Below are positions 1,486 to 21,185 of a stretch of 64,000 nucleotides of DNA, piece by piece. The stretch is from Planctomycetota bacterium (lineage in GTDB: Bacteria; Planctomycetota; UBA1135; UBA2386), in contig JBKAGP010000001.1 in the NCBI GenBank assembly GCA_046290465.1, positions 4,032,001 through 4,096,000 of the forward strand, read 5' to 3'. Both the position numbers and the translations under genes were made by a program. The notes under the pieces were generated by a model, which saw only the letters and a program-made list of their open reading frames with translations, was not told where the DNA came from and made no database searches. Every line of letters starts with the position of its first letter. The first letter of the stretch is position 1.

Positions 1486-1515
1486 CTGCGCCTTCGAGTC
1501 CTGCAGGGCCTACCA
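1486..1515 (+). mobile_element. att core 1: tRNA 3'-end fragment (T-loop to CCA)
   Basis: CTGCGCC-TTCGAGT-CCTGCAGGGCCTA-CCA = T-loop, T-stem 3' strand, acceptor 3' strand, discriminator and CCA. No 5' half of a tRNA upstream. Confidence 0.8.
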
Positions 1516-1656
1516 CTCGGATCGCGCGCGGATGGCGCGTAGTTGCCGATTCGCGGGGGGTGCGCTGTTCGGGAAGGGCGAGTGTGCAACAGAGTGTGCA
1601 ATGGCGTCGGTCACAAGCTGGCACGACGTGGCACGGTCTGGCACCACCTGGCACGG
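1516..1656 (+). repeat. Conserved element-end arm downstream of att core 1
   Basis: CTCGGATCG...GATTCGCGGGGG spacer, GAGTGTGCAA x2, GGTCACA, then TGGCAC at 1619/1629/1639/1649. Homologous to 13561-13670 and 21040-21170. Confidence 0.8.
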
Positions 1657-1917
1657 TTGCGGAGAGGGCGCTGCAGGGTGATTCCTGCAGCGTGGGGGCC
1701 GTGGTGCGCCGCCGGTGGGCGTGGCGGCGATGGGCCAGAGGGCGTGGCCCGGAGGGGGCTCGGGCCGCGGTGGCGGCCGCGCGCGGGGCTGACGGGCCGA
1801 ATCTCGCGATCCGGATAGGGTGCCTGGTGGCGCTGGGGTGCCTGGCCGTGGTCCGTGGTGGTAGGCTGCGTGGGCGGGCAGCGGGATTTGGTCCGCTGTC
1901 GCACACGAGTTGGGCAG

Positions 1918-2276
1918 ATGAGAGTCGCGCAAGCAGTCGTGGCAGACACGGGCTTCCTCCGGTCCCCGGAGATTCTCGACTACTTTGGCGAGTCGCCCCG
2001 CAACGTCGTAGTGCTCGCTGAGTACACCTGCATGGAGCGCTACCAGGGAGACGCACTGGTCAACATCGAGCGCTCGACCGAGCTCTTGCGCAAGCATCCG
2101 ACCCAAGTCCTGATCGCGCGGGGTGCGCGACAGGTGGTCGAGATCCAGGATCGTCGGTCTACGCAATTCGTCACCCGCGACCTCATTGAGCCTGGGCAGA
2201 CGACAGGCTTCGCGCAGTTCTGCTCTGACGTAGAGCGTGCCGCGAAGGGAGATCTTGCTACCCTCGCCAATATCCG
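1918..2276 (+). pseudogene. 3'-truncated PIN-like hypothetical protein, fused to IS1380 interior
   Basis: MRVAQAVVADTGFLRS...VVVLAEYTCMERYQGD has a PIN-type first strand plus Asp. The sequence switches to transposase DNA at ~2277. Confidence 0.5.
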
Positions 2277-3864
2277 GGTCGACGTGAGATCCGAGCCGAC
2301 TTCGACGGCGGTGACACCTCCTCGGACGGCGGCGCGTTGCTGCTGCAAGAGACCGAAGAGCGGACCAGAATCATCGAGCAGTTCTCGCACTGTTTCGACG
2401 ACCACCGCGACGAGACGCGCATCGAGCACAGCGTGCGCGACCTGCTCGCCCAACGCGTCTTCGGGATCGCACTCGGGTACGAAGACCTCAACGACCACGA
2501 CGACCTGCGCTTCGACCCGCTGCTCGCGACGGCCGTTGGCAAAGAGGATCCGAAGGGCCTCAAGCGGCTGCGGGAGCGCGATCGCGGTGCCGGCCTGGCG
2601 ACGTCGAGCACGCTGAATCGCGTCGAGCTTGCGCGGCCGGACGACGCAGAGTTCCACCGCTACAAGCGGGTCGTGCTGCGCGAGGAGTTCGTCGACCAAG
2701 TCTTGCTCGACGTGTTCTTTCAGTCGTTCGACGAAGTGCCCGAAGAGGTCGTGCTCGACTTCGACGCGACCGACGACCCGCTACACGGCAAGCAGGAAGG
2801 TCGCTTCTTCCACGGCTACTACGGCCGCTACTGCTACCTGCCGCTCTACGTCTTCTGCGGCGACCACCTGCTCGCGGCGCGGCTTCGATCCTCGGGCATC
2901 GATGGGGCGGCCGGTACGGTCGACGAGCTCGAGCGCATCGTGCCGGCACTGCGCGAGCAGTGGCCCGACGTGAAGATCATCGTGCGAGGCGACTCTGGAT
3001 TCCGTCGCGAGGAGATCATGGCATGGTGCGAGGATCACGCTGTGGACTACGTACTCGGCCTTGCACGCAATTCGCGGCTGGTGAAGCGCATCGCGTGTGC
3101 ATTGAGCCGCGCACAGCAGCGGCACGCGCAAACCGGTCAGCCGGCTCGATACTTCGTAGACTTTCGTTACCGCACGGAGAAGTCGTGGAGCCGTGAGCGT
3201 CGCATGATCGGCAAGGCCGAGCATCTCGACAAGGGGAGCAACCCGCGCTTCGTCGTCACCTCGCTGACGAGAAAGCGGTGCGGTGTGAAGAAGCTCTACG
3301 AAGACCTGTACTGCGCACGTGGGGACATGGAGAATCGGATCAAGGAGCAGCAGCTGTTCTGCTTCGCCGATCGCACCAGCACCGCAACGATGCGCGCCAA
3401 CCAAACGCGGCTCTACTTCTCTTCGATCGCGTACACGTTGTTGGCGGCGCTTCGTCGGATTGGGCTGCGCGGGACCGACCTCGCACGCGCCCAGTGCAAC
3501 ACGATCAGGGCGAAGCTGTTGAAGATCGGCGCGATCGTGCGCGTCACGGTACGAAAGGTCTGGGTCTCGCTGTCACGCGCGTGCCCGTACGCTGGCATCT
3601 TCCGTGATGTCGTCGCGAATCTCCGCGCGCCGCCTGCTCGCCGCGCCTGAGGCTGTCGATTCGCCCGCTGCGCCCGCCTCTTTCTGCGCCACCGGTCTGT
3701 ACGCAGTCGACGGAACACGCCCGTTTCGGCCCTGTTCGCCTTTCAGGCCACACGCTGGCCGCCTTGATGCCGTCGCGTGCGCGTCAACGCCGCCGTCTCG
3801 TCAGCATCTTGCGCCGCTCAAGGCGCCAACTACGCCGAAACCGCGCAGTGGTGAGACATCCGGG
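2277..3864 (+). mobile_element. IS1380-family insertion sequence, 5'-truncated
   Basis: Transposase frame begins abruptly at GRREIRADFDGGDTSSDGG. Right end GGTGAGACATCCGGG followed by CTAG; no matching left IR seen. Confidence 0.8.
2337..3650 (+). CDS. IS1380-family DDE transposase (N-terminal residues missing)
   Basis: GYEDLNDHDDLRFDP, LDFDATDDPLHGKQEG, RGDSGF, YCARGDMENRIKE motifs. Confidence 0.9.
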   Translation: MLLQETEERTRIIEQFSHCFDDHRDETRIEHSVRDLLAQRVFGIALGYEDLNDHDDLRFDPLLATAVGKEDPKGLKRLRERDRGAGLATSSTLNRVELARPDDAEFHRYKRVVLREEFVDQVLLDVFFQSFDEVPEEVVLDFDATDDPLHGKQEGRFFHGYYGRYCYLPLYVFCGDHLLAARLRSSGIDGAAGTVDELERIVPALREQWPDVKIIVRGDSGFRREEIMAWCEDHAVDYVLGLARNSRLVKRIACALSRAQQRHAQTGQPARYFVDFRYRTEKSWSRERRMIGKAEHLDKGSNPRFVVTSLTRKRCGVKKLYEDLYCARGDMENRIKEQQLFCFADRTSTATMRANQTRLYFSSIAYTLLAALRRIGLRGTDLARAQCNTIRAKLLKIGAIVRVTVRKVWVSLSRACPYAGIFRDVVANLRAPPARRA

Positions 3865-4138: not shown

Positions 4139-5860
4139 ATGTCCTTTCGCAGCGTTCTCTCCACTCTTCTGATCTCGCCGGCCGTCACCACAGGCCTGCT
4201 TGCTCAAGCTACCCAGTTCGGCAACGGGTGCGCCTCATCCACTTCGTCCACGCCGACGATCTCGCTCCAGGGAGCACCGTTCGCAAACACGCCGCTCGTG
4301 TTCGACGTGTCCGGCCCGCCGAACAAGGTGGCCTATGTGATGCTGTCCTTCCAGAACCAGACCTACGCCAATGTGCCGTTGCCGCTCGACCTCGCGGCCA
4401 TCGGTAACCCCGGTTGCACGCTGCTAGTGCCGCCGGACTATAGTGTTCCGGTCCCGCTCAACGGGCAGGGCACAGCGACGTTGGCCATCCCGGCGTTGCT
4501 GCCGGCAAACACGACGCTCTACGCGCAATCCGCCATCCTGTTCGGTCAGGGCAACGCCTTGCTCGACGGCATCAGCGAAGGCCTGCAGATCGACATGATC
4601 ACGCCGACCAGCGACCCGGTCATCGGCAGCATCAGCCAACTGAGCGGCACCGAAGGCGACCTGCTGACGATCCGCGGGGCCAACTTCGGCAACGGCCCCG
4701 CAGACGATCTTTGCATGGCGGTCATGGACAATACCGACCACATCCAGGCGTTTCTCAAGGTCGAGACGCGCACCGACACGGACATGACCGCGCGCATCAA
4801 GACCGTGCGCCCCGGCGCCGTGCCGGGCAAGCTCGGCTTCATACTCGGTTCCGGCAACAACCAAGCGCTGCCGCCGGTGCCCGGCGCCTCAGCGCCACAG
4901 TCGGTCTGGAGCTGGCGCAACGCCAACGTGCAACCGAACGAGATGGCGATGTCGTCGCAGACGTTCGCGCCAGTGTCGTCGTTCTCGTCGTTCGGCAACC
5001 CGTGCGTGCCGTGTCAGGACGGCTACATCTGGTTCGACGTACAGAACGGCCAGTTCGTGGCCGACCTGCCCGAGCTCTGCGACGGTGCGACGTTCTGCGT
5101 CTACTTCAGCGAATTCTGGTGGATCGACAACGCTGGCGACTATCACCGCATCGAGAGTCAAGTCGAACAGGTGTCGATCTGCGGCATGACGTCAGCCGCG
5201 CGCGCCAACTACCTCGCGTTCATGCTCAGTTTCAACCTCGCCGGTGACGGCCTCAGCGCGTTCGCCCCTGATGCGAGCACGCTGACGATCCAGATCAACG
5301 GCGGCGCCCAGTTCATGGGCGGTTCGCTTGTCATGCAATACAAGTACGACCCGACGCTGCGCGTGACCGCGACCGACGGCACCTGCGACAACTTCGCCGC
5401 GCCCACCGAACCGACGACGATCGGTGCCAACCTCAACGCTTGGTACATCGCCAACACGCCGTCGGCGCCGCTGGCAATCTTTGACACCACCGCGTCGGAC
5501 CGTCACTTCCTGCACACGATCCCGATTCCGACAGGCCCCGGCACGACCACGACCGGCATCAGCCTCGAACTGCATCTTCGCAGCAACAACGCCATGTCGA
5601 CCAACGACAACATCCAGCTGGTGCTCAACGGTGGCGCCTTCGTCTGGAGTCTACGCATCTCCGACTTGCCCGGCACCGGCGGGACCTGGACCTCGGGCCA
5701 GACGGCCACGGTCTGCCTCGACCTCGCCGACTTGCCGCCGAGCAACAGCAGCGTGACGAGCGTCCTCGCCGAGGCCATCCTCGCAGGTGAGGTCGACATC
5801 CGAATCCAGGATGACACGACCGTTGACTGCGCGTCGATCACCGTCCAGCGATGCCAATGA
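4139..5860 (+). CDS. Secreted beta-rich protein with IPT/TIG-like segment
   Basis: Signal peptide ending LLAQ; module LPLDLAAIGNPGCTLLV...LYAQSAIL...SEGL; GDLLTIRGANFG. Confidence 0.75.
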   Translation: MSFRSVLSTLLISPAVTTGLLAQATQFGNGCASSTSSTPTISLQGAPFANTPLVFDVSGPPNKVAYVMLSFQNQTYANVPLPLDLAAIGNPGCTLLVPPDYSVPVPLNGQGTATLAIPALLPANTTLYAQSAILFGQGNALLDGISEGLQIDMITPTSDPVIGSISQLSGTEGDLLTIRGANFGNGPADDLCMAVMDNTDHIQAFLKVETRTDTDMTARIKTVRPGAVPGKLGFILGSGNNQALPPVPGASAPQSVWSWRNANVQPNEMAMSSQTFAPVSSFSSFGNPCVPCQDGYIWFDVQNGQFVADLPELCDGATFCVYFSEFWWIDNAGDYHRIESQVEQVSICGMTSAARANYLAFMLSFNLAGDGLSAFAPDASTLTIQINGGAQFMGGSLVMQYKYDPTLRVTATDGTCDNFAAPTEPTTIGANLNAWYIANTPSAPLAIFDTTASDRHFLHTIPIPTGPGTTTTGISLELHLRSNNAMSTNDNIQLVLNGGAFVWSLRISDLPGTGGTWTSGQTATVCLDLADLPPSNSSVTSVLAEAILAGEVDIRIQDDTTVDCASITVQRCQ

Positions 5861-5950
5861 TCTCATGAAGTGGGATCCTTGCTTAGGATAGCCCCTTCAC
5901 AACGGCGACGACTTCGGTCGTCGCCTCCCGCTACCACCTCGCCAACGGCC

Positions 5951-8608
5951 ATGACCATGCCAAAGCCAGCCGCCCCCGAGCCAGGAGACCGCCTTGCTCG
6001 CGTGATCGAGATCCACCACGAGTTCCTCGCGAGTGGCGGCAAGGACCACGAAGCCGTTCTGCGCCAACACGAAGATCTGCGGGAACTGCTCGAACCACTA
6101 TTGCTCGAATCGTTTTCGGGTGATGAGTCCTCACCGGAGGGCGACGCGAGCGACGTTGGAGGAGGCACACGCACCATCGGCGACTACCGCATCGTCGGCG
6201 AGCTCGGCCGCGGTGGAATGGGCGTGGTCTACGAGGCAGAGCAAACGTCACTCGGTCGTTGCGTCGCTTTGAAGGTCCTGCCACCGAGTTCGCTGCTCGA
6301 CGAAAGGGCCGTGGCGAGGTTTCGCCGCGAAGCACAGATCGCCGCCAACCTCGATCACCCACACATCACGAAGGTGTTCGACAGCGGCGACCACGACGGC
6401 CAGCTGTGGATTGCCATGGAACTCGTCGCCGGCACTCCATTATCGGAGCTGCTGGCCCTGCGCGCCGGCACGCAGGCGAGTGACGTCCGCTTCGCGGTCG
6501 AACTGATCGCACAGGTTGCCGACGCGCTTGAGCACTCCCACGCGGCCGGCATCGTGCATCGCGACGTAAAGCCGGCCAACATTATTGTGCAAGACGGCGG
6601 CAACGCGATGCTGGCCGACTTCGGCGTCGCCCGCAGTGCCGAAGCGATGTCGGTCACGATGACCGGCGACTTCGCCGGCACACCGAACTACGCGTCCCCA
6701 GAACAACTACGCGCGCGCCAAAACAACATCGATCATCGAACCGACATCTTCTCGCTCGGTGCAACGCTGTACGAGTTGCTGACCCTGCAGAAGCCGTTCG
6801 ACGCCGATTCCATAACCGAGCTGCGCTACCGGATCGAACGACGTGACCCGCATGCACCGTCCCGGTTGGTACGGGCCGTCTCGCGCGACCTCGATTCGAT
6901 CGTGCTTCGCGCGTTGGAAAAGGACGCAAGCAAGCGCTACGCCACCGCTGCGGCGTTTGCTGACGATCTGCGGCGCTGGCAGAGTGGTCGTCCTGTGCAT
7001 GCGCGACCCGTCGGAGCTCTGGTTCGAATCGCCCGATGGTGCCGACGCAATCCGCTTCCAGCAGCGTTCCTGCTCTCGATCACCGCGGCGCTGCTCGTCG
7101 TGCTGCAACTGGCGCGGGTCGCCGATAGCCGCTTGGTGCAGTTCCAGAGCGTCAAGCTAGGACGCGACATCGAACTGATCAAACTCGCGATGCGGTCGGC
7201 GCCCGCCGCTGCGCCTGCTACGGCCGCACAACTTCACCAAGTCGCCGGGTCCGCCGAAGACCTGCTCGTGCAGGTGCCCAGGCTGCGCACTATCCTCGCC
7301 GATCTAACCGCCGAAGGAGTCTCGACTTCGCACGTCGAACCGCGCCGGCTCCTCAAAGAACATCCGGCAGCCGCCTACCTCGACCGACTACGCACGGATC
7401 GGGCAGCAACTGCCAGACGATTGGCGCAACGCGTCGCATCCGGTGAGGCGCGGCCCGAGTGGCAAGCGACGGTCGCAGGTCGCCTGGCAAAGGTCGATGC
7501 ACAGATCGAGACGCTCACGGCACTGATCGCGCAACGCCGTCGCTGGGCGTTCGCCGACGACGAAGTCGAGTATCTGCACGACACCATTGAGGACTACGTC
7601 GCCGAATTGCAGTGGCTAGCCGAATACCGGATACCCGAAATCCGCCGACGGGCCGCGTGGGCAGATGAACTCGGCAAGCCGTTGTCGCAGGCCAACCGCG
7701 ACCTCTGGCAGGAAGCCATCGGGGTCGCGGCGTGCGACAAGCCATACGGCAACCTCAAGCTTGCCATACAACCCGGCCTGGTGCCCCTCGGTGCCGACCG
7801 CGACAGCGGCTTGCTTGAGTTCGCGCACCACCGTTCCGGCAGGATTCCGAAGCGCGACGCCGACGGCAAGCTCATGCTCGACGCAGAATCGGCACTGGTC
7901 TTTGTGCTGATTCCCGGCGGCACGCCGATCATCGGCGCCCAGACCACCAACCCATCCGGCGCCAACTTCGACGAATACGCGGCACAAAACGAACTCTCAC
8001 CGAAGAAGGTCCAACTCGACCCGTTCTTGTTGAGCAAGTTTGAGATGACTCACGCCCAGTGGACGCGGCTCGCCACCGGACTCGACGTCTACCACCGCGC
8101 CGCGCACTTCGAAGGACGGGAAGGCTTCGAAGTAAAGCCGATCGCGCGCGTTTCGTGGGTCAACTGCCAACGACTCTGCACAGCGAAGGGTCTACTACTG
8201 CCGACGGAATCGCAGTGGGAATACGCATGTCGCGCCGGCTCCCCGCACATGTTCTGGACGGGCGAAGAAGCACAGAGCCTGGACGGCAAGGAACACGTCG
8301 ACGATCGCAACGCCGGGCGGGTTAGCGCCTACGCGATGGCACCGAATCCGTTCGGGCTACACAACATGGCAGGCAACGTGCAGGAGTGGTGCCGCGATCC
8401 GTTCATCGATCGCGGCTGGCAGTCCGCACCCGGTGACGGCGTCCGCAGCGGCACCCCGGACGGCGATCACCGCGCCATTCGCGGTGGCCTCTACACCTAC
8501 GACGCCTGGAACTCGCGCCCGACCGCACGCAACACCAGCAGCGCCCGAGACGAGAAGGAGATCATCGGCCTCCGGCCGGCGATGCGTCTCGTACCTGCGA
8601 ACGACTGA
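5951..8608 (+). CDS. Ser/Thr protein kinase - TM - FGE-sulfatase (SUMF1-like) fusion
   Basis: LGRGGMGVVY, VALK, HRDVKPAN, DFG, GTPNYASPEQ; TM segment; LPTESQWEYACRAG, NPFGLHNMAGNVQEWC. Start taken at ATG 5951. Confidence 0.9.
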   Translation: MTMPKPAAPEPGDRLARVIEIHHEFLASGGKDHEAVLRQHEDLRELLEPLLLESFSGDESSPEGDASDVGGGTRTIGDYRIVGELGRGGMGVVYEAEQTSLGRCVALKVLPPSSLLDERAVARFRREAQIAANLDHPHITKVFDSGDHDGQLWIAMELVAGTPLSELLALRAGTQASDVRFAVELIAQVADALEHSHAAGIVHRDVKPANIIVQDGGNAMLADFGVARSAEAMSVTMTGDFAGTPNYASPEQLRARQNNIDHRTDIFSLGATLYELLTLQKPFDADSITELRYRIERRDPHAPSRLVRAVSRDLDSIVLRALEKDASKRYATAAAFADDLRRWQSGRPVHARPVGALVRIARWCRRNPLPAAFLLSITAALLVVLQLARVADSRLVQFQSVKLGRDIELIKLAMRSAPAAAPATAAQLHQVAGSAEDLLVQVPRLRTILADLTAEGVSTSHVEPRRLLKEHPAAAYLDRLRTDRAATARRLAQRVASGEARPEWQATVAGRLAKVDAQIETLTALIAQRRRWAFADDEVEYLHDTIEDYVAELQWLAEYRIPEIRRRAAWADELGKPLSQANRDLWQEAIGVAACDKPYGNLKLAIQPGLVPLGADRDSGLLEFAHHRSGRIPKRDADGKLMLDAESALVFVLIPGGTPIIGAQTTNPSGANFDEYAAQNELSPKKVQLDPFLLSKFEMTHAQWTRLATGLDVYHRAAHFEGREGFEVKPIARVSWVNCQRLCTAKGLLLPTESQWEYACRAGSPHMFWTGEEAQSLDGKEHVDDRNAGRVSAYAMAPNPFGLHNMAGNVQEWCRDPFIDRGWQSAPGDGVRSGTPDGDHRAIRGGLYTYDAWNSRPTARNTSSARDEKEIIGLRPAMRLVPAND

Positions 8609-8652
8609 GTCCCTTTCTACATAAGGCACCACGATTGAAGAAGGAGAGTCCG

Positions 8653-10656
8653 ATGCCTGCCACCACCCGCAGAATCCTGACCGCCGTCACTATGACAGCG
8701 TCACTTGCCGCCCAGAACGTCCAGGGCAATTCAAACGCGCACAGCTTCACGACCCACCAAACCGGCACGTTCGGCCTGTTCGCCGCCAACGATCAGGCGG
8801 TCGGAAAGGAGCTGTGGAAGCTCGACCTGCTTTCGAACACTACCAGCATCGTCGCTGACATCCGGCCCGGTGCCGTTGGATCCAACCCGACCGGGATGAC
8901 CTTCCTCGGACCCGACTACGTTTTCGCAGCCGACAACGGCGCGACCGGTGACGAACTCTGGCGCAGCGACGGCACCACCGCGTCGCTCGTGCTCGACATC
9001 AACCCGACCGGCTCCTCCTACCCGCGCGAATTCACCGTCGTTGGCACCCGGGTTTTCTTCGTAGCGAACGACGGCCTCACCGGTGACGAACTCTGGCAGT
9101 ACGACGGGACCACCGCTTCGCTTGTCGCCGACATCAATCCCATCGGTGGGTCCAAGCCGCGTTCGTTGACCGCCTTTCAAGGTGTCCTGTTGTTCTCGGC
9201 CGACGACGGCTTCAGCGGGCCCGAACTCTGGCGAACGGATGGCACGGCGGCTGGCACCGCACTCATCGCAGACATCTCGCCCGGCCCTAAAGGCAGCTTG
9301 CCAGCCGAACTTACACAGGTCTCCGCGACGACGGTCGCCTTCGTGGCGAACGACGGCATCGCCGGCGCCGAGCTGTGGCGCACCGACGGGATCACGGCCG
9401 TGCAACTGGCAGACATCTTCCCCGGCGCCAACGGGTCCGCACCCAGTAACCTGACACGGCACCTGTCAAGGGTCTACTTCGCGGCGACCAGCCCGACCAA
9501 CGGACGCGAATTGTGGGTCACGGACGGCGCAACTACGCAACTGTTCGCCGACATCCAACCCGGGGTCGGAGGCTCCGACCCACGCGAGCTCGTCTCCGAC
9601 GGGTTCCTCGATCTGTGGTTCACCGCCGACGACGGCCCGAACGGCAACGAGATCTGGCGATCAGTAGGCCTGACCGGGCCACCGATTCGCATCACCAACC
9701 TAGTTCCCGGGACGGGCAGCCTTGAGCCGCGCTCCCTCACGCCGACCGGCAACATCGGTGAAATCGCGTTCGTCGACCGCGCCTTCACGCCGAGCTTGTG
9801 GACCGCGAGCGCATTCGGTAGCACGACGACGCTGCAGCGGACCTATCGTAACGGTCCGGTCGGTATGGCGTCCCATCGCAACATCTTCGGCGCCGGCTTG
9901 ATCTTCACCGCGGACGACGGCCTGGGCATGGAACCGTACCGTTTCACGGTAACCGGCCCCCAGATCATCGCTGACATTGCACCGCCTCCGAGCGAAGACC
10001 GGCCGGACATCGATCTGCACGCGGCACCCGACACCTTGTCGATCACGATCTGCATGGAGAACGGTGATCCGGGCGGCGTGGGTGTCATCGCAGTTGCTCC
10101 GAACATCTCGGCCCCGATTTCTCTCCCGGCCGTCATTGCCGGCAACGTCCTGATCCAGCCGCCGGTCTTTACGTCGATCGTCTTGCTGGATGGCACGGGT
10201 GCCGGCTGCTTCACAACCAACATTCCGCTACCGGTCACTACCGCCGAACTGGCGGCGCAGGGTTTCGGCCTCTACCCCTCGACCCCCTCAATCCGTGCAA
10301 CGGATCTCGGCGCCTTCGGCGTAACTAGCTTGAGCTCGGTGCCGATGTTTACCGGGGACACCCGAGTTGTCGGTGTGTTCAACGACAAGGACCACCGCTA
10401 CGAGATCGGCCTGAAGCTTCCGCCACTACCAAGCAGCGGACGTCACCCAACCGGCAAGTTCCGGGTCCGGCACCGCAAGGGCCAAGGCGCGGCGAGCATG
10501 CTGACCGACGTGCCCGGCAACGCGTTTGACTACCAAGGGTATGAGACCGATCTGTTCTTCGAAGGCTCGACCGTGCTTGAGGAGATCGAAGGCATCGAGT
10601 TGTGGTTCATCGACAGCGAGGGCAGCGAGCAGTTCGTCTGGAGGTCGTACTGCTGA
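8653..10656 (+). CDS. Secreted ELWxxDGT-repeat protein
   Basis: AAGGAG RBS, signal peptide, repeated ELWRSDGT/ELWQYDGT/ELWRTDGT units. Confidence 0.9.
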   Translation: MPATTRRILTAVTMTASLAAQNVQGNSNAHSFTTHQTGTFGLFAANDQAVGKELWKLDLLSNTTSIVADIRPGAVGSNPTGMTFLGPDYVFAADNGATGDELWRSDGTTASLVLDINPTGSSYPREFTVVGTRVFFVANDGLTGDELWQYDGTTASLVADINPIGGSKPRSLTAFQGVLLFSADDGFSGPELWRTDGTAAGTALIADISPGPKGSLPAELTQVSATTVAFVANDGIAGAELWRTDGITAVQLADIFPGANGSAPSNLTRHLSRVYFAATSPTNGRELWVTDGATTQLFADIQPGVGGSDPRELVSDGFLDLWFTADDGPNGNEIWRSVGLTGPPIRITNLVPGTGSLEPRSLTPTGNIGEIAFVDRAFTPSLWTASAFGSTTTLQRTYRNGPVGMASHRNIFGAGLIFTADDGLGMEPYRFTVTGPQIIADIAPPPSEDRPDIDLHAAPDTLSITICMENGDPGGVGVIAVAPNISAPISLPAVIAGNVLIQPPVFTSIVLLDGTGAGCFTTNIPLPVTTAELAAQGFGLYPSTPSIRATDLGAFGVTSLSSVPMFTGDTRVVGVFNDKDHRYEIGLKLPPLPSSGRHPTGKFRVRHRKGQGAASMLTDVPGNAFDYQGYETDLFFEGSTVLEEIEGIELWFIDSEGSEQFVWRSYC

Positions 10657-10663
10657 GCCGAGC

Positions 10664-11314
10664 TTAGGCGAGAAACTCATCAACACTGCCGCGCTTCATC
10701 GCCATCAACTTCTTGGAGATCCTGGCGATGGCGCGGTTGCACCGGACACGCGCCGAATCCTCCTTCATGTCGACGGCCGTGCCGATCGTCGCGAAGTCCA
10801 GCTCGTCGTAGATGCGCATGATCACGATGCGCTGATCCGTCGGCGGCAACGTCGCGATCGCCAAGCGAACGGCGGCTTCGCGCTCGTTGCCACGAACCGC
10901 CTCGGTCGGCGTCGTATCGTCGGCGGCGCACATGTGCAGCCTTACCGATGTGCCGCTGGGCAACGGCTTCTCACGGGCAACCTGGCGCCGCATCCGCGCA
11001 AACCAACGATGTTGACCAGCGATAACGCCATCGACGATCTTCACCAACAGGCCACGCAACTGTTCGCGCGTCTCGACCTCGAACGGCGGCGAGTAGCGCA
11101 TGAACTCGACAACGGCATCCTGCAGGACATCGCCGGTATCCGCCTTGCTCCGAACCTGGCGGCCGAGCCGCCCGTGCGCGTAGCGGCGCAGATACTCCAT
11201 GTTGCTATCGAGTATCTGACCGAGCGCGCCATGATCCCGTTCTTGAAACCACCGGCGCAACAGCGCGGGCAGCGCGGCCTTGTCTCGATCGGCGTCTTCA
11301 GGTGATTCGTGCAC
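10664..11314 (-). CDS. ECF sigma-70 factor
   Basis: Region 2 (YLRRYAHGRLGRQVRSKADTGDVLQD) and region 4 (LPPTDQRIVIMRIYDELDFATIG). Confidence 0.9.
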   Translation of the reverse strand: MHESPEDADRDKAALPALLRRWFQERDHGALGQILDSNMEYLRRYAHGRLGRQVRSKADTGDVLQDAVVEFMRYSPPFEVETREQLRGLLVKIVDGVIAGQHRWFARMRRQVAREKPLPSGTSVRLHMCAADDTTPTEAVRGNEREAAVRLAIATLPPTDQRIVIMRIYDELDFATIGTAVDMKEDSARVRCNRAIARISKKLMAMKRGSVDEFLA

Positions 11315-12772: not shown

Positions 12773-12801
12773 CGGCATCAGCCCCCTTTCGATTCGTCAG
12801 C

Positions 12802-13100
12802 TCACTCTCTTCGCTTGCGCCAGTAGCCGGGGCGTCGGTGCAGGTGCGCGACTGCGAGTACGAGGACTCGATCGACGCGAAGGGCGTAGATCAGCGCGAA
12901 TGGGAATCTGCGGAGAAGCAGCGCCGGGTGCCCGTGACGTCCTCGGGCCAGCGATGAGGCGCCTCTTGCAGGACGGCGAACCCTCGCTCCAGCTCGGCGA
13001 CGAAGGCGTCAGCGGCTCGCGGGCTACGTTCTGCATACCACGCGCGCGCCGCGGCCGCCTCCTCGACGGCCTCGGGGTGGAACGACAGTTCGACGCCCAC
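12802..13100 (-). pseudogene. RelE/ParE-family toxin with 1-nt deletion frameshift
   Basis: MGVELSFHPEAVEEAAAARAWY...GTRRC. Restoring one C near 12917 gives LLRRFPFALIYALRVDRVLVLAVAHLHRRPGYWRKRRE*. Confidence 0.8.
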
Positions 13101-13101
13101 G

Positions 13102-13320
13102 CTAGCCCGAGATCCGGCGACGAGCCTCGTCGAGGTCGACGGCGTTCACTCTGCCAGTGTCGAGGTCGGTCAGGCGTCGCTGGATCTCGGCAGACCAGGC
13201 GGCTTCAGCGTCAGCGTCTACCGCGCTCTCGAGGCTGCGCAACAGGCTGCCCGCGAGTGCCGCGCAGGCCTCGGCAGGTAGCGACATGGCGCGACGCAGG
13301 AGGTCCTCGGAGTCGTTCAT
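13102..13320 (-). CDS. Putative addiction-module antitoxin (TIGR02574-like)
   Basis: 72 aa MNDSEDLLRRAMSLPAEACAALAGSLLRSL...AWSAEIQRRL, directly upstream of the toxin. Confidence 0.8.
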   Translation of the reverse strand: MNDSEDLLRRAMSLPAEACAALAGSLLRSLESAVDADAEAAWSAEIQRRLTDLDTGRVNAVDLDEARRRISG

Positions 13321-13392
13321 GCGGATTAGCATACCTTGCTGGGGGCGTTGGTGCTGCGAGCCGGTTGCGGCGGCGGGTGGCGTTTCGGCCGC

Positions 13393-13670
13393 GAGTGTGC
13401 AACGGAGTGTGCAACGACCTTGGTCACAGCCTGGCACAACGTGGCACGATCGCTGGCGCCAGATGGTGCCGCATCGCCCGACACGTGGCACGGTTAGGCA
13501 CATCCTGACACAGCGTGGCACAACGCCGCCCTGCGTCTTCGAGTCCTGCAGGGCCTACCACTCGGATCGTGCGCGGATGGCGCGTAGTTGCCGATTCGCG
13601 GGGGTCGGAGTACTCGGGGAGGGCGAGTGTGCAATGGCCTCGGTCACAACGTGGCACGGCCTGGCACGGA
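13393..13670 (+). mobile_element. att junction 2: arm + tRNA 3' core (13538-13560) + arm
   Basis: GAGTGTGCAAC x2, GGTCACA and phased TGGCAC-like repeats upstream; 23-bp core identical to 1493-1515; same spacer and arm downstream. Confidence 0.85.
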
Positions 13671-13674
13671 TGGG

Positions 13675-14149: not shown

Positions 14150-14908
14150 ATGGAACATCCGAACTCGAAGGCAATGGCAAAGCTGCGGCTACTTGCGCCG
14201 TTGCTCCAGAAGCACGCGAAGCGCCTCTGCAAGCTCGTGCGCCCGGACTTCCCACCCGCCCAACGCCCGCAGCCGCAGACGCTCATCCAGGTCGCCGAGG
14301 CCGAGATCGAGTCGTCGAGCACGGAACCCGGGCCGCTTGCGATCATGCACGTGTCGTGGAATGCGATGCGCAGGTACATCCGCGAGCAACAGTTCCAGGC
14401 CATGGAGCGTGATCTCCACTCGTATGCGGTCAGGCTGGCCCACGCAATCGCCGTAGTCGGCACGCCGGCGCGCACCCGCGCCGAAACGGCACTCAACCAG
14501 GCCGGCTACGAGTACATCCGCAACCAGAATGCCCTGCTCGAACGCGTTCCGGCGAAGGCGTGGTGCCAGAGATTGATCGAGTGGCGGTTGAAGGACGGTG
14601 ATCGCGCTGATCGCCGCAACGCCGTGATCGTCGTCGATTCGCCAGCGACGTTGGCCGAGAGCAAGGAGTCCGTCCTCGACACGGTCGCGACCCGTGAGTT
14701 GGCGCAGTTCGTGGCCGCCTCGGTCAAGAAGCTTGGGTCGCCCTACGACTTGATTTTCCAGGCGTTGACGTGCGACGGCCTCAAGCAGGCCGAGGTCGCG
14801 GAGAAACTCGACATGGAGCTGTGGCGTGTGAAGGCATGCAAGGGATTACTCGACACCGCGATCCTGCAAGCTATCGAGAGCTACTCAAAGGGAGGCGAAG
14901 ATGAGTAA
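14150..14908 (+). CDS. Divergent ECF-like sigma factor
   Basis: C-terminal region-4 HTH (DGLKQAEVAEKLDMELWRVK), region-2-like AKAWCQRLIEWRLKDGDR; overlaps a downstream ZAS gene. Confidence 0.6.
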   Translation: MEHPNSKAMAKLRLLAPLLQKHAKRLCKLVRPDFPPAQRPQPQTLIQVAEAEIESSSTEPGPLAIMHVSWNAMRRYIREQQFQAMERDLHSYAVRLAHAIAVVGTPARTRAETALNQAGYEYIRNQNALLERVPAKAWCQRLIEWRLKDGDRADRRNAVIVVDSPATLAESKESVLDTVATRELAQFVAASVKKLGSPYDLIFQALTCDGLKQAEVAEKLDMELWRVKACKGLLDTAILQAIESYSKGGEDE

Positions 14909-15887
14909 CGCGAAGAAGCGAACGACCGTCCCGCTCAAGGCGCTGCCAGCAATTTCGCTGGCAGCCAAGCTGCTGGACGAAGATCGCAGCAAGTGCCCCA
15001 GCATTGATTCGATCGGCATCGTCGCCTACTCGGCCCTCGGAGTGGGCGGTAGCCTGTCGGAAGCTGACCAGCACGTGTTCGCAACCGTCAAAGCACACCT
15101 GTTCGAGTGCGCGCGGTGTGCCGCGGACTACCGATACCTGTTGCGCGATATCTCGCGCGACGAGCGCGACGACAAGCAGAAGAACTGCATCCAGATGAGT
15201 TTTGACCTGTCGGATGCGCTGGTGTCGTCGCAGGAGACGGTCCCGCCACTGCGCAATGCGATCGTCGCGGCCGAGGTGTCAAAGACCATCGGCACCGTCA
15301 AGCACGGCAAGTTGATCTACGCGCCACCGACGCCGGCCGAATTGGTTGAGAACGTCCTAGCCGTCGAGGCGAACAGCATGAGGAAGGCCGACAGCTACCG
15401 CTCCATATCGCGCATAAACTTCCACCGGAGCATCAAGTGCCTCGCGGGCCATCCCGGCGAAGGTCCGTTCTTCGATGCGCTGGTCGGAGCGTTGTCGCGC
15501 GGAGCCAAGGCTCGGCGCATCTTCCCGCTTCCGATAGGACATTCGCAACAGGTGCTGGACGCTCTTGTGGGCAACGGCGACTTGCCGGAGGGCTACGAGT
15601 TCTTGCGTGCCCATCATCGGTTGTCGGAGGAGTTCCCGGGGTACGAGATCCGGTTCCTGACGACGGACGCCGAACAGGTCAACTTCGGTATGTTCGAGGA
15701 TGGTGCGACGGGCACCCGTCGGTGCTTCGAGCCCTACTACGAGGACGGCCGCACTCGCGGATTGACGTGCGTTCTGTCGGCCGACAACTACGTCTCAATG
15801 TGGGACTGCGTCTGGGACGAGGCTATCTCGGCTCATGACGCGCAGTTCGAAGCCGGGATGGCCCCCGACGACACCAGCGCGCCGTAG
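14901..15887 (+). CDS. Putative cytoplasmic anti-sigma factor (ZAS motif) with unknown C-terminal domain
   Basis: HLFECARC = HxxxCxxC; GGAGG RBS; no TM segment. Confidence 0.6.
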   Translation: MSNAKKRTTVPLKALPAISLAAKLLDEDRSKCPSIDSIGIVAYSALGVGGSLSEADQHVFATVKAHLFECARCAADYRYLLRDISRDERDDKQKNCIQMSFDLSDALVSSQETVPPLRNAIVAAEVSKTIGTVKHGKLIYAPPTPAELVENVLAVEANSMRKADSYRSISRINFHRSIKCLAGHPGEGPFFDALVGALSRGAKARRIFPLPIGHSQQVLDALVGNGDLPEGYEFLRAHHRLSEEFPGYEIRFLTTDAEQVNFGMFEDGATGTRRCFEPYYEDGRTRGLTCVLSADNYVSMWDCVWDEAISAHDAQFEAGMAPDDTSAP

Positions 15888-16087
15888 GAACGGGCGCTGG
15901 CGCAGATTGGTGGGCTCGAAGCGCGTGGTATCCGGAAACTTGGCCGACGCTGATTTGGCCAGAAATTCTGGCTCGGATCGCTTCGATGAGCTATTCGCGA
16001 CGGTTGGCTTCGGCCGAGTTGGCAGACTGGTGCTCGTGAACGATGTCGGTAACCAGCCAACCAGCCTGTCACGAAGCAGCAGGGCCG

Positions 16088-17155
16088 TCAGGCCGCGCGT
16101 CGATAGCTGCGAAGCAGCCCGCCGAGACGCTCGTCGGCGACGAGCTCGCCATCTCTCGGCGGTTCGCTGTCGCCTGTCGTGACCAGCCGGTTGCCGAGGC
16201 CCTGATGCGGGCGCTCCGCGTTGTAGTAGTCGACGTAGTTTGACAGGGCCCGCCGGAGGTGTTGCTCTCCGAACAGAATCATCCTGCTGAGGCACTCTCG
16301 CTTGACGCTCTGCACCCACCGCTCGGCAAACGAGTTCATGTTCGGAGCCTGGATGGCGGTGCGCATGACGTTGACGCCGGCCGCGGCGAGGATGCTGTCG
16401 AACTGCCTCGTGAACGACGGCGCGTTGTCGACCACCAGGAACCGCTGCCCATGCAGGAACCCGTCGACCTGATCGGTGAGGTTGCGCGCTACCTGCGCCA
16501 TGAAGCTCGCGTTCGGGTGCGTGGTGACGCCGCTGATCCCGACCCGCCGTGTCGCGTGCTGGATGGCGAGCAGCACGTTGTGCGTGACGAGTCCGCGCTT
16601 GGTTCAAACGTCGACCGTGAAGAAGTCCATGCCGCAGATCGCATCGGCATGCGCCTTCAGGAACGTGCGCCAGCTCGTCGGCCGGTCCGGGCTTGGCTGG
16701 ATGCCGCTGTCTTTGAGCGTGGTCGCGATGGTCGTCTTGCCAACGCGGTGGCCGAGCTTCTTGAGCTCGCCCTGGATGCGCAGGTAGCCCCAGCTCGCGT
16801 TCTCGGTGGACATGCGGACGATCAGCTCGCGGATCGCCTTCATGATGCCGGGGCGGCCAACTCGTCCCTTGTGCGGGTAGGTGTGGTGCGCCGCGATCAG
16901 CCGGCGGTGCCACCTCAGGATCGTGTCGGGGGTGACGATGGTTGCGAAGCTGTTGAGGATGTGGCGGCCCAACGGCTTGCCCTTGGCCGCGAGGCGGCGG
17001 CGCTGGTCGTCGGTCAGGCGGAGTCGCTTCCTGCCGAGCTGTTCCTTCAGCACGTGGTTCTATTCGGCCAGGTAGTCGATGACCTGCGCCTGCTGCCTGT
17101 TGACGAAGCCGGCGAACGCGGCGAGCAGGAACCTGAGCGGGAAGGCGGTGCTCAT
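16088..17155 (-). pseudogene. rve DDE transposase copy 2, two nonsense codons
   Basis: Same 1068-nt length as copy 1; in-frame TAG at 17060-17062 (E in copy 1) and TGA at 16604-16606 (W in copy 1). Confidence 0.9.
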
Positions 17156-17272
17156 CAGCCTGTATCGACGCTCGAGTGCCAGGCGGTCTCCCGAGGCCGG
17201 CGCACCGCCGTCATCGAGCCCGTCGCATCACGTCTGGAATACGACTGCCTGTGTATACGTCCTCGGTGATGA

Positions 17273-17596
17273 CTAATCAGCGCCGGGATCATCGTCGAGT
17301 TCTCGGGAGAGATCGCGAGCGCCGTGGATCAGTCGGGCTACGCGGATGCCGTCCTCCACCGGCTCGTATACGATGATGAATGTGCGGAGCAGGACGAAGT
17401 AACGGAAGGACCGTCCAGGGGGATCGATCTCCGGCTGGCTCGTGCCGAGCTCTGGCGACTCAGCGAGTCGTCTTAGGGCCTGTTCGAATGCGTTTCGTAG
17501 TCGACGCGCTTGCGTGACGCCGAAGCGGCGGACGGTGTAGTCGGTAATCTGTCGGCGGTCGTCTTGGCTTGCGAGCGAGAGCTCGATGTGGCTCAC
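17273..17596 (-). CDS. parE: ParE/RelE-family toxin
   Basis: GTG start overlapping the antitoxin stop; [19 protein letters not shown]...[23 protein letters not shown]. Confidence 0.85.
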
Positions 17597-17886
17597 GGCG
17601 CGTCCTTTTGCTGGGCTTCCAGCTCGGCGATTTCCCGGTCCCAGTCCGCAAAGAAGGTATCTGCGTCGACCGTTTCGCCTCGGTCTAGTTGGTCCGCGCC
17701 TTCCTGCACGAGGGCGCGAACGCGTTCGAGTTCGGCCTGGCGGCGGCGCTGCTGATCTTCCAGAAGTCGCAGGCCCTCCCGGACGACCTCGCTCGCGGAC
17801 TGGTATCGGCCCGAGGCCACGCAGTCGGCTAAGAACTCTGCCTGTCGTGGAGTGAACGAGACGCTGATGTTCTCTCGCTGGGCCAT
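17593..17886 (-). CDS. parD: ParD-like RHH antitoxin (CC2985 family)
   Basis: [36 protein letters not shown]. Confidence 0.85.
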
Positions 17887-18059
17887 GACGGGAGTGTAGG
17901 ACAATGTCGCACACCGTCAAGTCGGTCCGGTGCTGCGTTGTCCGAGAGCTTCATGCCATGCGGCACTCCCACAGCCGATCCGCCTCGACGTCGCGGCTCT
18001 GCTCGATCTTCTCGACGCCGCCGCCGTTGAGAGCCTCGGGGTCGAGGTCGGTGGCCTTC

Positions 18060-18450
18060 CGCGCTCCAGCTTCAACGGTCGCTCACCGGCGGGCCCATAG
18101 ACCTCTAGGATTGTTGCAGGAAGGCCGATACCGCCCTCTTCAATGTAAGCAGCGCGCACGGCTCGACAGCCCAACTCACGCGCCGCATAACTGGGAAGCA
18201 CACCTACGTCTGTCCCCCTAGGAGCATTATTCACAAGCAGCGTCCAACCGCCAACACTCATCCACGCATGTCGACTCAGAACCGCAGCCGGATTTAGCGC
18301 ATCCAAAACGTCAACGAAAGAGCGCCACCTCGCCTCGACGACTCGCCACCCGAGGCCTTCAGCAAGCCACTCGGCAACCGCAGCATGAGCGCATTCAAAG
18401 AAACCGACCTCTTGCGTCAGCTCTCCACCGCTTCCGCTGGGCCAACTCAC
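18060..18450 (-). pseudogene. Truncated hypothetical protein, possibly polymorphic-toxin immunity type
   Basis: Lower-GC DNA; GWTLLVNNAPRGTDVGVLPSYAARELGCRAVRA...ILEVYGP; switches to unrelated sequence at ~18060. Confidence 0.45.
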
Positions 18451-18702
18451 GGAACGATCCTCAGCACAAAAACACCCCTCGGGACATTTGCCAGAATCCT
18501 ATACTCGCGCTCCGCTTCTGACGCGCCGGATATTAGCTTTGATGGACTCTCCGCGTGCTCGCGCCGCCGGAAGTCGACGACGCGGTCGGCCGGACTCCGC
18601 CTGCCAATGCTGGGCTAAATCCGCTACCAATGCACCCAGTCATGGTTGTCACATATGCTCCCGCTTGCACGGCCCGCGAGGAGCTCGGGAGAAGGCGCAA
18701 GA

Positions 18703-19023
18703 TCACTGCTGCCAGAGAACCTCCCGTGTTCCATCAGGCCGCCCCAATTCGGCAACGACTCCACGGTCAGCGCACTTCCGTTTACACACCTGTTGCAAAC
18801 AGTCCAACACTCGGCTGTGGACCTCGTCATTAGGTGGCATCTCAATCTCAAGGACCACTTCATCCGGCCCAGTTTCAATGCCACAGATATCAGCCCCAAG
18901 ATCGAACAGCGCGTCATCGACGTCATGACCGACAGACTCCACTAAAGCGTCGACAACCTCTACGCTGGCACCGTAGCCGGGAAGAGGAAATCTGACAAAC
19001 AGCATGTGCATGGCAACCACCAT
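18703..19023 (-). CDS. Small acidic hypothetical protein
   Basis: ~106-aa ORF in lower-GC DNA (MLFVRFPL...DDALFDLGADICGIETGPDEVVLEIE). Confidence 0.45.
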   Translation of the reverse strand: MVVAMHMLFVRFPLPGYGASVEVVDALVESVGHDVDDALFDLGADICGIETGPDEVVLEIEMPPNDEVHSRVLDCLQQVCKRKCADRGVVAELGRPDGTREVLWQQ

Positions 19024-19359
19024 CGCGCGCCCGCCACGACGTGTCCACGACTCTTGCCAGCAACGGTGTCGAGCGGTTGATCGGGGCGAAGTGACACCAT
19101 GTTGCCCGGATGCCAACCGACGTGAATCGGTCGCTTCGGACTTATCGATGACCAGCTGGCCGCAGCCGGCTTGGGCGGAGTAGGTAGACCGATAGCGCGT
19201 TCCCCGCTGGTACGCGGCCTGCAGCTGTCACGCTGTCGGTGCCCCCGCCACTACCGGGCCCGTCGCATTTCGCCTGGAATGCGATGCTCGGCTGAACCCT
19301 GGTCGGCGAGACTCCCGGCCGCCAAGGCGCAGACGAGCCTCCGGACACCACGCGGTCGC

Positions 19360-20685
19360 TCAGAGGGCCTCGACGCGCGGATTGCTGAGCCAGACCACGG
19401 ATTGGTTGACGGCGACGTAGAGGCGTTGCCGCAGTAGTTGATGCTGGATGTCCGCTTTGACGACCGGCTTGTCGTCGATGTGGACGACGAGCTCCTCGTC
19501 GACGGCAATGGTCACGTCGAACGGCTTGCCGGCTGGCGTGTTGATCTCGGCATCTGCCAGGTCGACCCACTTGCCGCCTCGCCATTCGGAGATCATGCAG
19601 CGGTTCGGCGCGAAGATTACGCCCAGGATCTCTTGTCGCGGTAGCTCGAACAGGAAGCGGAACGACTTTCGGCCCTCGATGTCCGCCACCTCAACGCGTG
19701 CTTTGACCGCGTAGCCGCCTTCCGGGAGTTTGCCGCCAAACTCGATCTGGCCGGGGCTCTTGTCGTTGCCGGCCAGGTAGATGCGGTCGCCCTGCTTGCC
19801 GGCGACGTCGAAGGTCAGCAACCAGTCGGGTTTGCTGGACGCGACCTTGCCGGCCATGGTGGCCTCGGTCTTGCTCCAGTCCTTGCCGAGCAGGCCTTCG
19901 AGCAACGCCTTGCGGTTGTCGGCGATGCCCTCCCTCTTCTTCGGCTTGCGCTGCTTCGTCAGCAGCCTCTTGAGGCTCGATTTCCTGCTGTCGGCCAGCA
20001 TGATCGAGCACCACGAGGCGGCCTCGAGCGCGAAGTCGTATTGGCTCGCATCTACGTATGGACCTGCCGCAAGCACGTGCGGCAAAAGCTGGGTTCATCA
20101 ACCGGTCTCAGTACGCGCCTTGAGGATCAGGCTGCGCTCGTCGAAGAGCGGGTCGACGCCCCAGGCACGCTTGGGATTCTCGAGTTCGTCGAGGACGGCG
20201 AACGAGACGACATCGGCAAGCCACGGGTCACCGCGACCGACGCCATGTTCGAGGGCGACGAGCTTGGCCGCCATGCGGATGACGTCATGGCGCACGGACG
20301 CCGGCGCACCGAGCACCGCAAAGCTCGCGTCGCCAAGCTTCGGCACGGCGACGTAGGCGACGTTGCTCTCGTGGTCGCAGAACGCCTGCACCGGAAACGC
20401 ATACGGGCTGCTCTTCTTCTCGACCGTGCGGTAGGCCGCTGCATCGGCATAGAGCTCGACGCGCGGCCACTTCTTGGGCCGCTTCACCTTCTTGAGCAGG
20501 GCGTTGAGCTTCTCGGTTGCCTGCCAGCAACCGTCGATCACCTGCTCGGCGACCGCGGGCTTCATCTCGCCCGGGTGCAGCGTGAGCTGGATCTGCTTAT
20601 CGCCGCGTATCAGAGGCTGCGCCTGGGCACTCGCCGCAGCGGCGGCGAGGACCGCGCTGATGATGACTCGAGATGATGTTCCCAT
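19360..20685 (-). pseudogene. Secreted protein split by in-frame TGA-TGA
   Basis: ORFs 20098-20685 (signal peptide ending ASAQAQ) and 19360-20085 are in the same frame, separated by two TGA codons at 20095-20100. Confidence 0.6.
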
Positions 20686-20957
20686 GGCAAGACGTTAGCC
20701 CCCTGTGTGTCGAAAGCGAACTTCGCACCGAGGGGCGTGTCACCTTCGCGGTCGGCGGCTCGTTCCACTTCTCGCTTTCGCACCGGCGTGCTGCATAGCG
20801 GCTCCGTTGGCAGAACGGCGAACTGGGATGGCTCCGATCTGACGACCCTCGAAAGCTGCGCAGCAGCCGGTTGGCGGCTCACCGACGATGATAGGCAGCC
20901 AACACTCGCAGCGCGGCACGAGCGTTTGCCGACAACGGGTAGGGCCCTCCTGCTGCC

Positions 20958-21185
20958 GAGTATGCAACGGCCTTGGTCCCAACCTGACTCCGCCCGACAC
21001 AACCCTGCCCTGCGCCTTCGAACCCTGCAGAGCCCACTAGTCGGATCGTGCGCGAACGGCGTGTCGTCGCGGATTCGCGGGAGTTGATCTCGTCGCCAGG
21101 GCGAGTGTGCAATCGCCTCGGTCACAACGTGGCACCGCCTGGCGCAGGTCGGCACGGCCGGGCACAACCGACCTCGGATCGTGCG
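20958..21185 (+). mobile_element. att junction 3 (degenerate): arm + tRNA 3' core (21017-21039) + arm
   Basis: GAGTATGCAAC...GGTCCCA; core TTCGAACCCTGCAGAGCCCACTA (18/23 to cores 1 and 2); TCGGATCGTGCG spacer; GAGTGTGCAA, GGTCACA, GGCAC-like at 21130/40/50/60. Confidence 0.75.

Follow-up and report, generated by a model that had tools for sequence, protein, structure and literature searches.

The window analyzed here is a 64,000-nucleotide stretch of the genome of a Planctomycetota bacterium (assembly GCA_046290465.1, contig JBKAGP010000001.1), corresponding to G000:C1:4032001-4096000. It contains the distal part of an island in which integrated units are stacked in tandem behind one tRNA gene, and its main subjects are the two complete units of the window, U3 and U4. 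The source genome, G000, is 6.59 Mb in size and 94% complete. The array covers at least 92 kb and begins at a tRNA(CAT) gene 70 kb upstream (genome 3961777-3961853), whose 3' end is the 23-bp attachment (att) core of the array. An earlier note on this DNA had predicted such a tRNA to the left of the window; ARAGORN run on the window alone called no tRNA. Three CAT tRNAs are present in G000, one of which has the C1-A72 mismatch and the GGG/CCC stem of an initiator. The target tRNA(CAT) is probably Ile2, because it has C4-G69 and C5-G68, presumably TilS determinants, and no tRNA-Ile(TAT) was called in G000.

The core occurs identically at window positions 1493 and 13538 and with 18/23 matches at 21017, as the earlier note had it. 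A further exact copy lies at genome 4011787, giving five cores and four bounded units in the array. Between cores, U1 measures 49,956 bp, U2 21,706 bp, U3 12,045 bp, and U4 7,479 bp. Beyond U4 lies the left arm of a fifth unit without a partner; no right end for it was found on either strand within genome 3.85-4.10 Mb.

Core 3 (1493..1515, plus strand) is the tRNA 3' end with the 7-bp T-loop overlap TTCGAGT and forms attL of U3. Such an arm is missing to the left of core 3, since the DNA ending there (1..1492) belongs to U2, an integrase-bearing element of another family, which shares the tRNA core but not the GAGTGTGCAA arms. The left arm (P') of U3 (1516..1690, plus) consists of a ~64-bp spacer, an arm pair at 1580 and 1592, TGGCAC repeats with a 10-bp period at 1619-1655, and a core-like palindrome at 1671-1690. 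The right arm (P) of U3 (13393..13537, plus) has an arm pair at 13393 and 13405 and 10-bp repeats, and runs into the intact core 4 (13538..13560, plus), which is both attR of U3 and attL of U4. Because arm repeats lie on both sides of this core, 13393-13670 is a complete attP-type junction. The left arm of U4 (13561..13670, plus) has a single arm 10-mer at 13625 and lacks the core-like palindrome. Its right arm (20958..21016, plus) is shortened and degenerate, with one mismatched 10-mer and the middle part gone. Core 5 (21017..21039, plus), where the overlap now reads TTCGAAC, is followed by the left arm of the fifth, older unit (21040..21170, plus).

Core, spacer, and arm together form a 104-nt repeat family with identities of 100, 90, and 68%. 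The symmetric core form CTGC-nnn-[7 bp]-CCT-GCAG and the common downstream spacer and arm had been recognized before; as a correction to that account, arm repeats flank the cores at 13538 and 21017 on both sides. The arm 10-mer GAGTGTGCAA has 11 copies in the 6.59-Mb genome, all on the plus strand and all inside the island, where 0.65 copies would be expected by chance in the genome under a fifth-order Markov model. In P arms, two 10-mers 12 bp apart are followed by the TGGCAC repeats and then the core. In P' arms, the core is followed by the ~64-bp spacer, the same 10-mer pair, further repeats, and often a core-like palindrome. Direct-repeat arm sites flank a symmetric core with a 7-bp overlap, the arrangement of lambda-type attachment sites; an attP of ~250 bp that contains a tRNA fragment is a further likeness to lambda-type Int/att systems (PMC4383910). 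By analogy with lambda-family systems, the 10-mer pairs are read as putative integrase arm sites and the 10-bp repeats as putative excisionase sites. In the genome G181, an 11-kb unit at a non-tRNA secondary site duplicates only TTCGAGTCCTGC. This confines the crossover to the T-loop and backs the 7-bp T-loop crossover that had been proposed.

The two units differ in how well their ends are preserved. U3 has exact cores at both ends and all four arm 10-mers. Over 142 bp that include the core, its P' arm matches the one directly following the tRNA at 97% identity; its P arm is identical to that of U1 at 133/145 aligned bases (92%). U4 has lost one of two 10-mers on each side, its P arm is shortened, and 2/7 overlap bases of its right core are changed. 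Along the array, identity to the tRNA-proximal arm declines with distance (97, 84, and 73%), in line with the increasing decay that the earlier note expected.

The core-like palindrome recurs beyond this array. Its right half, CCTGCAG/A, lies 170-330 bp past the core in 27/56 left ends, compared with 6 in a control interval. Candidate roles for the palindrome at 1671-1690 are an extra integrase site, a site for IntB (a second recombinase, described below), or a terminator. A role as a cargo-capture site was rejected because patchy similarity continues beyond the palindrome.

No tyrosine or serine recombinase is encoded in 1516-21016, as had been claimed for the DNA between the cores. This rests on six-frame whole-genome searches with PF00589, PF00239, and PF07508, in which tyrosine recombinase matches numbered 14 genome-wide. 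In U3, an IS1380-family transposase of an insertion sequence (IS; 2337..3650, plus) apparently interrupts an ORF starting near 1918. U3 cargo (4139..11314) comprises a 573-aa ORF of no known family, a Ser/Thr kinase with an FGE-sulfatase domain, an ELWxxDGT-repeat protein, and an extracytoplasmic function (ECF) sigma factor on the minus strand. An IS481-like (rve) element with an upstream toxin-antitoxin (TA) pair, Unstab_antitox and a ParE-like fragment, occupies 11443..13320 (minus). U4 cargo (14150..20685) comprises a 252-aa weakly ECF-like ORF, a 328-aa orphan, and 241-aa and 195-aa orphans. U4 also holds an IS481-like copy with two internal stops (15915-17252), a ParD/ParE pair (17273-17904), and an IS-end remnant (19121-19284).

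Both units are multi-gene, with genes on both strands, and have only the IS481-like element in common (84.6% over 1333 bp). Of the cargo once thought to be common to both, the rve element stands and the TA block does not, as the two TA modules differ and give no DNA-level alignment. The genome set used for comparison holds one genome per species, so that strain-level sharing or movement is not visible in it. Within it, none of 90 other genomes of the family was found to have the U3 cargo as a unit, and a U4 gene had no match at all there. Neither U3 nor U4 was found as a unit in 119 metagenome loci or other genomes; the matches obtained were confined to the IS and 252 bp of parD. A kinase-ECF order similar to U3 cargo is present in G018, a genome without the arm pair, and a TA and IS block similar to that of U3 is present in G037:C2, away from arrays.

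Because the source genome is metagenome-derived and repeats break short-read contigs at junctions, an assembly artefact or chance repeats have to be considered as the origin of the array. The junctions, however, differ from one another, and the units are unique. A sequencing run from a separate study covers U3 and U4, with 40/45 pieces at least 99% alike, and the same architecture is found in many other assemblies. An artefact is thus close to inconceivable. In the likely source run, depth was 160-164 on long contigs over U2 and U3 versus 140-143 over U4 and beyond, but short U3 contigs were at 127-151. Among the joints listed for the contigs of three runs, none linked 13537 to 1516 or passed over a unit; contigs drop rare variants, so absence is not shown by this.

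U1 (50 kb) is an autonomous element. It encodes a tyrosine integrase (IntA), an Xis-like protein, a SpoVG-like protein, a Prim-Pol primase, the XerC-like IntB, a DUF5681 protein, a ParB-methylase, and cargo. IntA is a 405-aa protein encoded 3.8 kb from the tRNA inside U1, and is the matching integrase that the earlier note expected near the tRNA. Its catalytic residues R238, K267, H343, R346, H369, and Y379 are invariant in eight aligned proteins. Residues 1-80 resemble Tn916-type and Arm-DNA-bind domains, with Atlas features at 0.95 to PF02920 and PF12167 clusters, which for parts of proteins counts as a lead only by the tool's own standard. The structural model, of moderate quality (pLDDT 74.7, pTM 0.52), has a beta-beta-alpha N-terminus. 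Full-length lambda Int is the top fold match (E 1.4e-8), with a TM score of only 0.28; a PDB sequence search with IntA gave no match at E<=0.001. IntA is thus predicted to be a lambda-type tyrosine integrase with an N-terminal domain of arm-binding type, and would bind the arms described above.

The tRNA-targeting integrase of U1 is accompanied by the Xis-like protein, whose matches are weak (phrog_66 at E 8e-4, HTH_17 at E 0.007) and whose position is conserved. The replication module consists of Prim-Pol (PF09250) and PriCT_2. IntB is a 290-aa XerC-like recombinase without an arm domain (L003:359-1228, genome 3972356-3973228), and it is kept in larger autonomous units at 49-71% identity. The right end of U1 is duplicated at 88.5% (genome 4006675-4007183 and 4011222-4011741), leaving an orphan right arm without a core. 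A 3.8-kb RHS-gene segment of U1 (genome 3974520-3978323) has an inverted 99.7% duplicate ~40 kb upstream (3932153-3935952). Pieces of the U1 backbone, the IntB region and ParB-methylase, are also present at genome 1617677-1619256, near a serine integrase at the initiator tRNA-Met, which suggests modules common to two element types in G000.

Int, Xis-like, and primase genes also occur in phage satellites, and the array could accordingly be a stack of prophage or satellite remains at a tRNA. The DUF5681 gene beside ParB-methylase resembles the neighbourhood of small terminase genes, and 2/9 structural look-alike rows of the DUF5681 protein are mainly viral (TM 0.40-0.49, under the tool's own bar). 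There was no PHROG packaging match, and no capsid, terminase, or tail family was detected among 29 proteins searched against PHROGs or 93 against Pfam. In a viral collection, IntA had no listed locus, and the arm pair had two matches, neither with arm context. Such an origin of the array is very improbable. Signs of conjugation were likewise not detected: relaxase and type IV secretion genes were absent among the 93 island proteins (Pfam), and VirB4 (PF03135) was not found in G000 (94% complete).

U2 (21.7 kb) encodes two other tyrosine recombinases, IntC and IntD, upstream of the window. As it has its own integrases and no GAGTGTGCAA arms, two element families share the tRNA site. A 55%-identical IntC element is found in G052 in the same arrangement as U2. 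U2 also carries defence-type genes (L001, genome 4014399-4027376), namely Schlafen AlbA_2, a KAP NTPase, a STAND-like NTPase, and DUF4062.

The GAGTGTGCAA-armed family extends through one family of Planctomycetota. The junction sequence matched 52/101 related genomes, many via the tRNA core alone. The arm pair, with at most one mismatch, is present in 34/91 genomes of the family, and a reversed control gave one match. An exact arm scan of a species-genome collection returned 115 stretches; among the 80 listed, most are labelled Planctomycetota. In metagenomes, 49/119 stretches have arm context among the matches listed, nearly all beside a tRNA 3' end. IntA was detected at E<=1e-60 in 15/63 other genomes of the family, two at only ~40% identity (IntC-like), and in 0/137 genomes of the order that belong to other families. 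An IntA with 58% or more identity to the query is encoded in 14 genomes, counting G000, and in each of them it lies inside an array with these arms. Five targets are used with the same arms: tRNA(CAT), Val(TAC), Val(CAC), Arg(TCG), and Arg(CCT).

A census was made of units bounded by core plus left arm and right arm plus core, in 12 genomes and locus L117 (n=30). It was drawn by hand: three 268-275-bp G037 palindrome intervals were merged into their units, two IntC-type units were excluded, a unit of G042 was included despite its degenerate arm, and only units not truncated by a contig end entered the count. A full or frameshifted IntA is present in 15/30 units (5.9-50 kb), a truncated IntA in 3/30, and none in 12/30 (2.3-12 kb). 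Integrase-less units thus recur in relatives, which supports the earlier note. In three units, all that is left of intA is its 3' half, next to the left arm. In L238, a 3.7-kb metagenome unit, IntA residues 263-401 lie directly beside the gene that normally abuts the right arm. No integrase-less unit was found to recur in a second genome of the set. Arrays with at least three bounded units are present in G000, G052, G037 (twice), and G181.

Two side observations concern G037. At G037:C1 516259, an array starts from a site outside tRNA genes, with a left flank similar to the tRNA T-stem. At G037:C6 4066173-4074882, an autonomous unit apparently has a type I-E-like cas operon as cargo, judged by gene starts only.

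Cis-mobilizable elements (CIMEs) are described as elements that arise by integration, decay, and accretion, and that have lost their integration and transfer genes while retaining attL and attR (PMC5704250). U3 corresponds to this description: it has no integrase or transfer genes, it keeps attL and attR, and it lies in tandem with the related autonomous U1 at the same target. U4 corresponds to it only in part, since its arms and right core are damaged. The array is probably a product of tandem accretion with repeated local decay of its members to CIMEs. The competing explanation is a maintained cassette system, where att-only units pick up cargo, are stabilized by TA pairs, and are moved in trans by the helper IntA. 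Their cargo would include ECF sigma/kinase modules and secreted proteins, with TA pairs beside the right arm. The two readings overlap, because a CIME with intact ends can move in trans; they differ in whether such movement is the rule.

Accretion and decay are favoured by the arms, which group by host genome and not by autonomy in the sequence comparisons. Within genomes, arm identity is 0.92 for P' and 0.88 for P (50 pairs); between genomes, it is 0.64 and 0.68 (385 pairs). Cross-genome pairs of integrase-less units, at 0.60 and 0.63, show no greater likeness than mixed pairs with autonomous units, at 0.64 and 0.66. When the joined ends are placed in a tree, well-supported branches unite the integrase-less units of G000, G052, and G181 with the autonomous elements of their own genome. 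The label "no integrase" requires seven changes on this tree, at least four of them forced by well-supported branches. This grouping and the truncated-integrase intermediates speak against the "family of non-autonomous cassettes" that the earlier note had seen here. The damaged sites of U4 and the failure to find the U3 cargo as a unit, or a U4 gene at all, in the 90 other genomes also count against a cassette system. Closely spaced arms without cores are many; in G001, G002, and G013, such hybrid arms have the appearance of products of deletion between direct repeats and point to continuing decay.

Several observations weigh against decay as the origin of the integrase-less units, and most of them count in favour of a cassette system. 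Units without IntA make up 12/30 of the census, and 11/11 of those checked have no trace of 12 recombinase and backbone proteins. U3 has fully intact arms and ends 97% and 92% identical to those of U1, yet has no backbone DNA in common with it; so clean a loss exceeds what random deletion predicts. The newest position, directly at the tRNA, is occupied by 4/12 integrase-less units. The unit at the G181 secondary site is integrase-less and lies on another contig than the helpers; the best match found for its left 507 bp (96.5%) is a unit where IntA was not found. TA pairs often abut the right arm, as in U3, G002, G054, and G011. In G001, G002, and G013, arms follow one another at intervals of 1.3-5 kb, each containing a single gene or operon; ECF fusions are frequent among these. 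Seven arm-bearing genomes have no IntA match at E<=1e-60 (G001, G002, G009, G041, G042, G047, and G054; incomplete assemblies). Gene conversion could be an alternative source of the within-genome arm similarity, and 9/30 census units come from one genome, G037. With both sides considered, a maintained cassette system is unlikely.

A further claim, that the att arms are a maintained gene-shuffling platform, is improbable. Here, att-only units would carry ECF sigma/kinase modules and secreted proteins, held by TA pairs and moved by a helper. Loading would possibly be carried out by the IS481-like element, which has one orientation near the right arm. The helper integrase would be a resident one, open to redirection to five different tRNAs and to secondary sites that resemble the T-loop. 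If true, the platform would provide an integron-like function from phage-type attP junctions, and would help to explain the large ECF and kinase repertoires of these bacteria.

Under the favoured reading of accretion and decay, family elements carrying IntA, Xis-like, SpoVG-like, primase, XerC-like IntB, DUF5681, and ParB-methylase genes would arrive as circles and insert at the 7-bp T-loop of tRNA genes by means of a lambda-type attP. A newcomer would always take the tRNA-side site, so that older units shift outwards and every junction of two family members becomes a full attP; the order of insertion follows from this model. Resident copies would then lose their backbone by internal deletion, IS activity, and cargo replacement. 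The outcome would be integrase-less units bounded by attL and attR, U3 and U4 among them. Judging by its intact sites, U3 is predicted to be still recognized by the IntA and Xis that U1 encodes within this array, and could be excised by them today. A U3 circle would be told apart from the chromosomal U3/U4 junction by positions 10 and 45-59 after the core. U4 and the fifth unit are probably fixed. The loading of units by an integrase acting in trans, as first envisaged, is possible, and integration followed by decay explains the same anatomy.

Integrons consist of serial units with unrelated cargo and contain TA modules in their arrays. The array resembles them in its serial units, common ends, unrelated cargo, and TA modules, and the earlier note had called it an integron-like stockpile. 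A true integron or close analogue would have a fixed integrase platform, attI, and attC-bounded cassettes. Here, the integrase is not IntI: against TIGR02249 (cut-off 265), IntA scores 25.9 bits, IntB 77.5, and IntD 64.8, and IntC has no match. IntA rides inside an att-bounded mobile unit in 15/30 cases, so that there is no fixed platform. The junctions are of attP type, tRNA cores with direct-repeat arms, and the units are large (2.3-12 kb) and comprise several genes, with both strands used. In G001, single-gene intervals between arms do occur, but cores are lacking there and the genes point in either direction. The stockpile interpretation is not supported, and an integron is extremely improbable.

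The closest parallels are other tandem islands. At ssrA of Dehalococcoides, 31 islands include 16 with an integration module and 15 without, the latter read by the authors as possible cis-mobilizable elements (PMC3146451). Here, 15 of 30 units have IntA and 12 have none. The Dehalococcoides module adjoins attL, is encoded in reverse, and comes with genes for ParB and a methylase (PMC3146451). As in the present arrays, tandem islands follow one RNA gene inside a stretch of 100 kb, have 3' repeat borders, and are inserted in the T-loop. In contrast, Dehalococcoides uses a serine recombinase and a tmRNA gene, whereas the family described here has a lambda-type tyrosine integrase, long two-sided arms, a primase, and five tRNA targets. 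CIMEs related to ICESt1 and ICESt3 have a conjugative helper (PMC5704250); here, no relaxase or type IV secretion gene is found in the island and no VirB4 in the genome.

Tycheposons of Prochlorococcus carry an integrase, excisionase, primase, and cargo, and the degeneration of elements lets their islands extend outwards, starting at the tRNA (bioRxiv 10.1101/2020.12.28.424599). The present family is likened to them by gene content, with a tRNA-targeting tyrosine integrase, an excisionase, a primase/helicase module, and no capsid or conjugation genes. Tycheposons belong to another phylum, with a small serine recombinase in the gene legend, while the helpers found here are 5.9-50 kb and have a second tyrosine recombinase. 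Islander holds 3919 islands, with 1836/3919 having a crossover in the T-stem region; it lists 125 tandems of at least two islands and just four of at least three (PMC4383910), the length class of the arrays in G000, G052, G037, and G181. Islander and TIGER demand an integrase in each island (PMC4383910, PMC12424338), and integrase-less units are skipped by design in such finders.

The concept is not new, because tandem accretion at an RNA gene, integrase-less members included, has been published for Streptococcus, Dehalococcoides, and Prochlorococcus. No description of this element family in planctomycetes was found in the literature searched, with subscription journals largely outside its scope. 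U3 and U4 are best taken as CIME-type units of a tycheposon-like integrative family, apparently undescribed, that belongs to one Planctomycetota family. What is added is a family with an arm motif in about a third of the genomes of that group. Its core, overlap, arm, and accessory repeats are readable from sequence, its arrays are long, and it is re-targeted to five tRNAs with unchanged arms. U3 and U1 offer a direct test case for mobilization in trans. Genetic tools are scarce for this group, and IntA together with its attP is a candidate for one that serves integration.

The remaining features lie in the flanks of the units and in the IS481-like element. Past the fifth left arm, host-like accessory genes (DUF6624, kinase, and ECF sigma) occupy 21221..29530, up to an inferred inversion breakpoint near 29566, and are probably ameliorated remains of older cargo. 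The array, its tRNA, and the gene upstream of the tRNA are inverted relative to five same-genus genomes, with breakpoints at window ~29566 and genome 3960733. In those five genomes, the gene upstream of the tRNA adjoins a phosphoesterase-murJ block, and in three of the five, what follows the tRNA is the block located here at genome 3906542. Accessory genes abound in the 54 kb between (genome 3906.7-3960.7 kb), which may be an older, ameliorated island end.

The IS481-like element is not private to arrays, an idea dropped after it was found clustered at other loci. In G000, it is confined to the island (window 11443-12772 and 15915-17252), and 23/26 of its alignments in arrays are antiparallel to the array. 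Outside arrays, copies form same-orientation clusters with cargo between them, several apparently without a left inverted repeat (G054:C11 300810-347435, G054:C14 661040-691813, G037:C2 1131190-1149564, and G041:C2 221641-226893). These clusters are possibly a second stacking or gene-capture system.

Two repeats complete the window. One 83-bp tandem repeat is present both at window 37467-37632 and at genome 3960560-3960740, by the inversion breakpoint upstream of the tRNA. Near gyrA, ~1.8 kb lie between a perfect hairpin of 31 bp and an inverted repeat of 41 bp (93%), at window 44583-44663 and 46434-46474.

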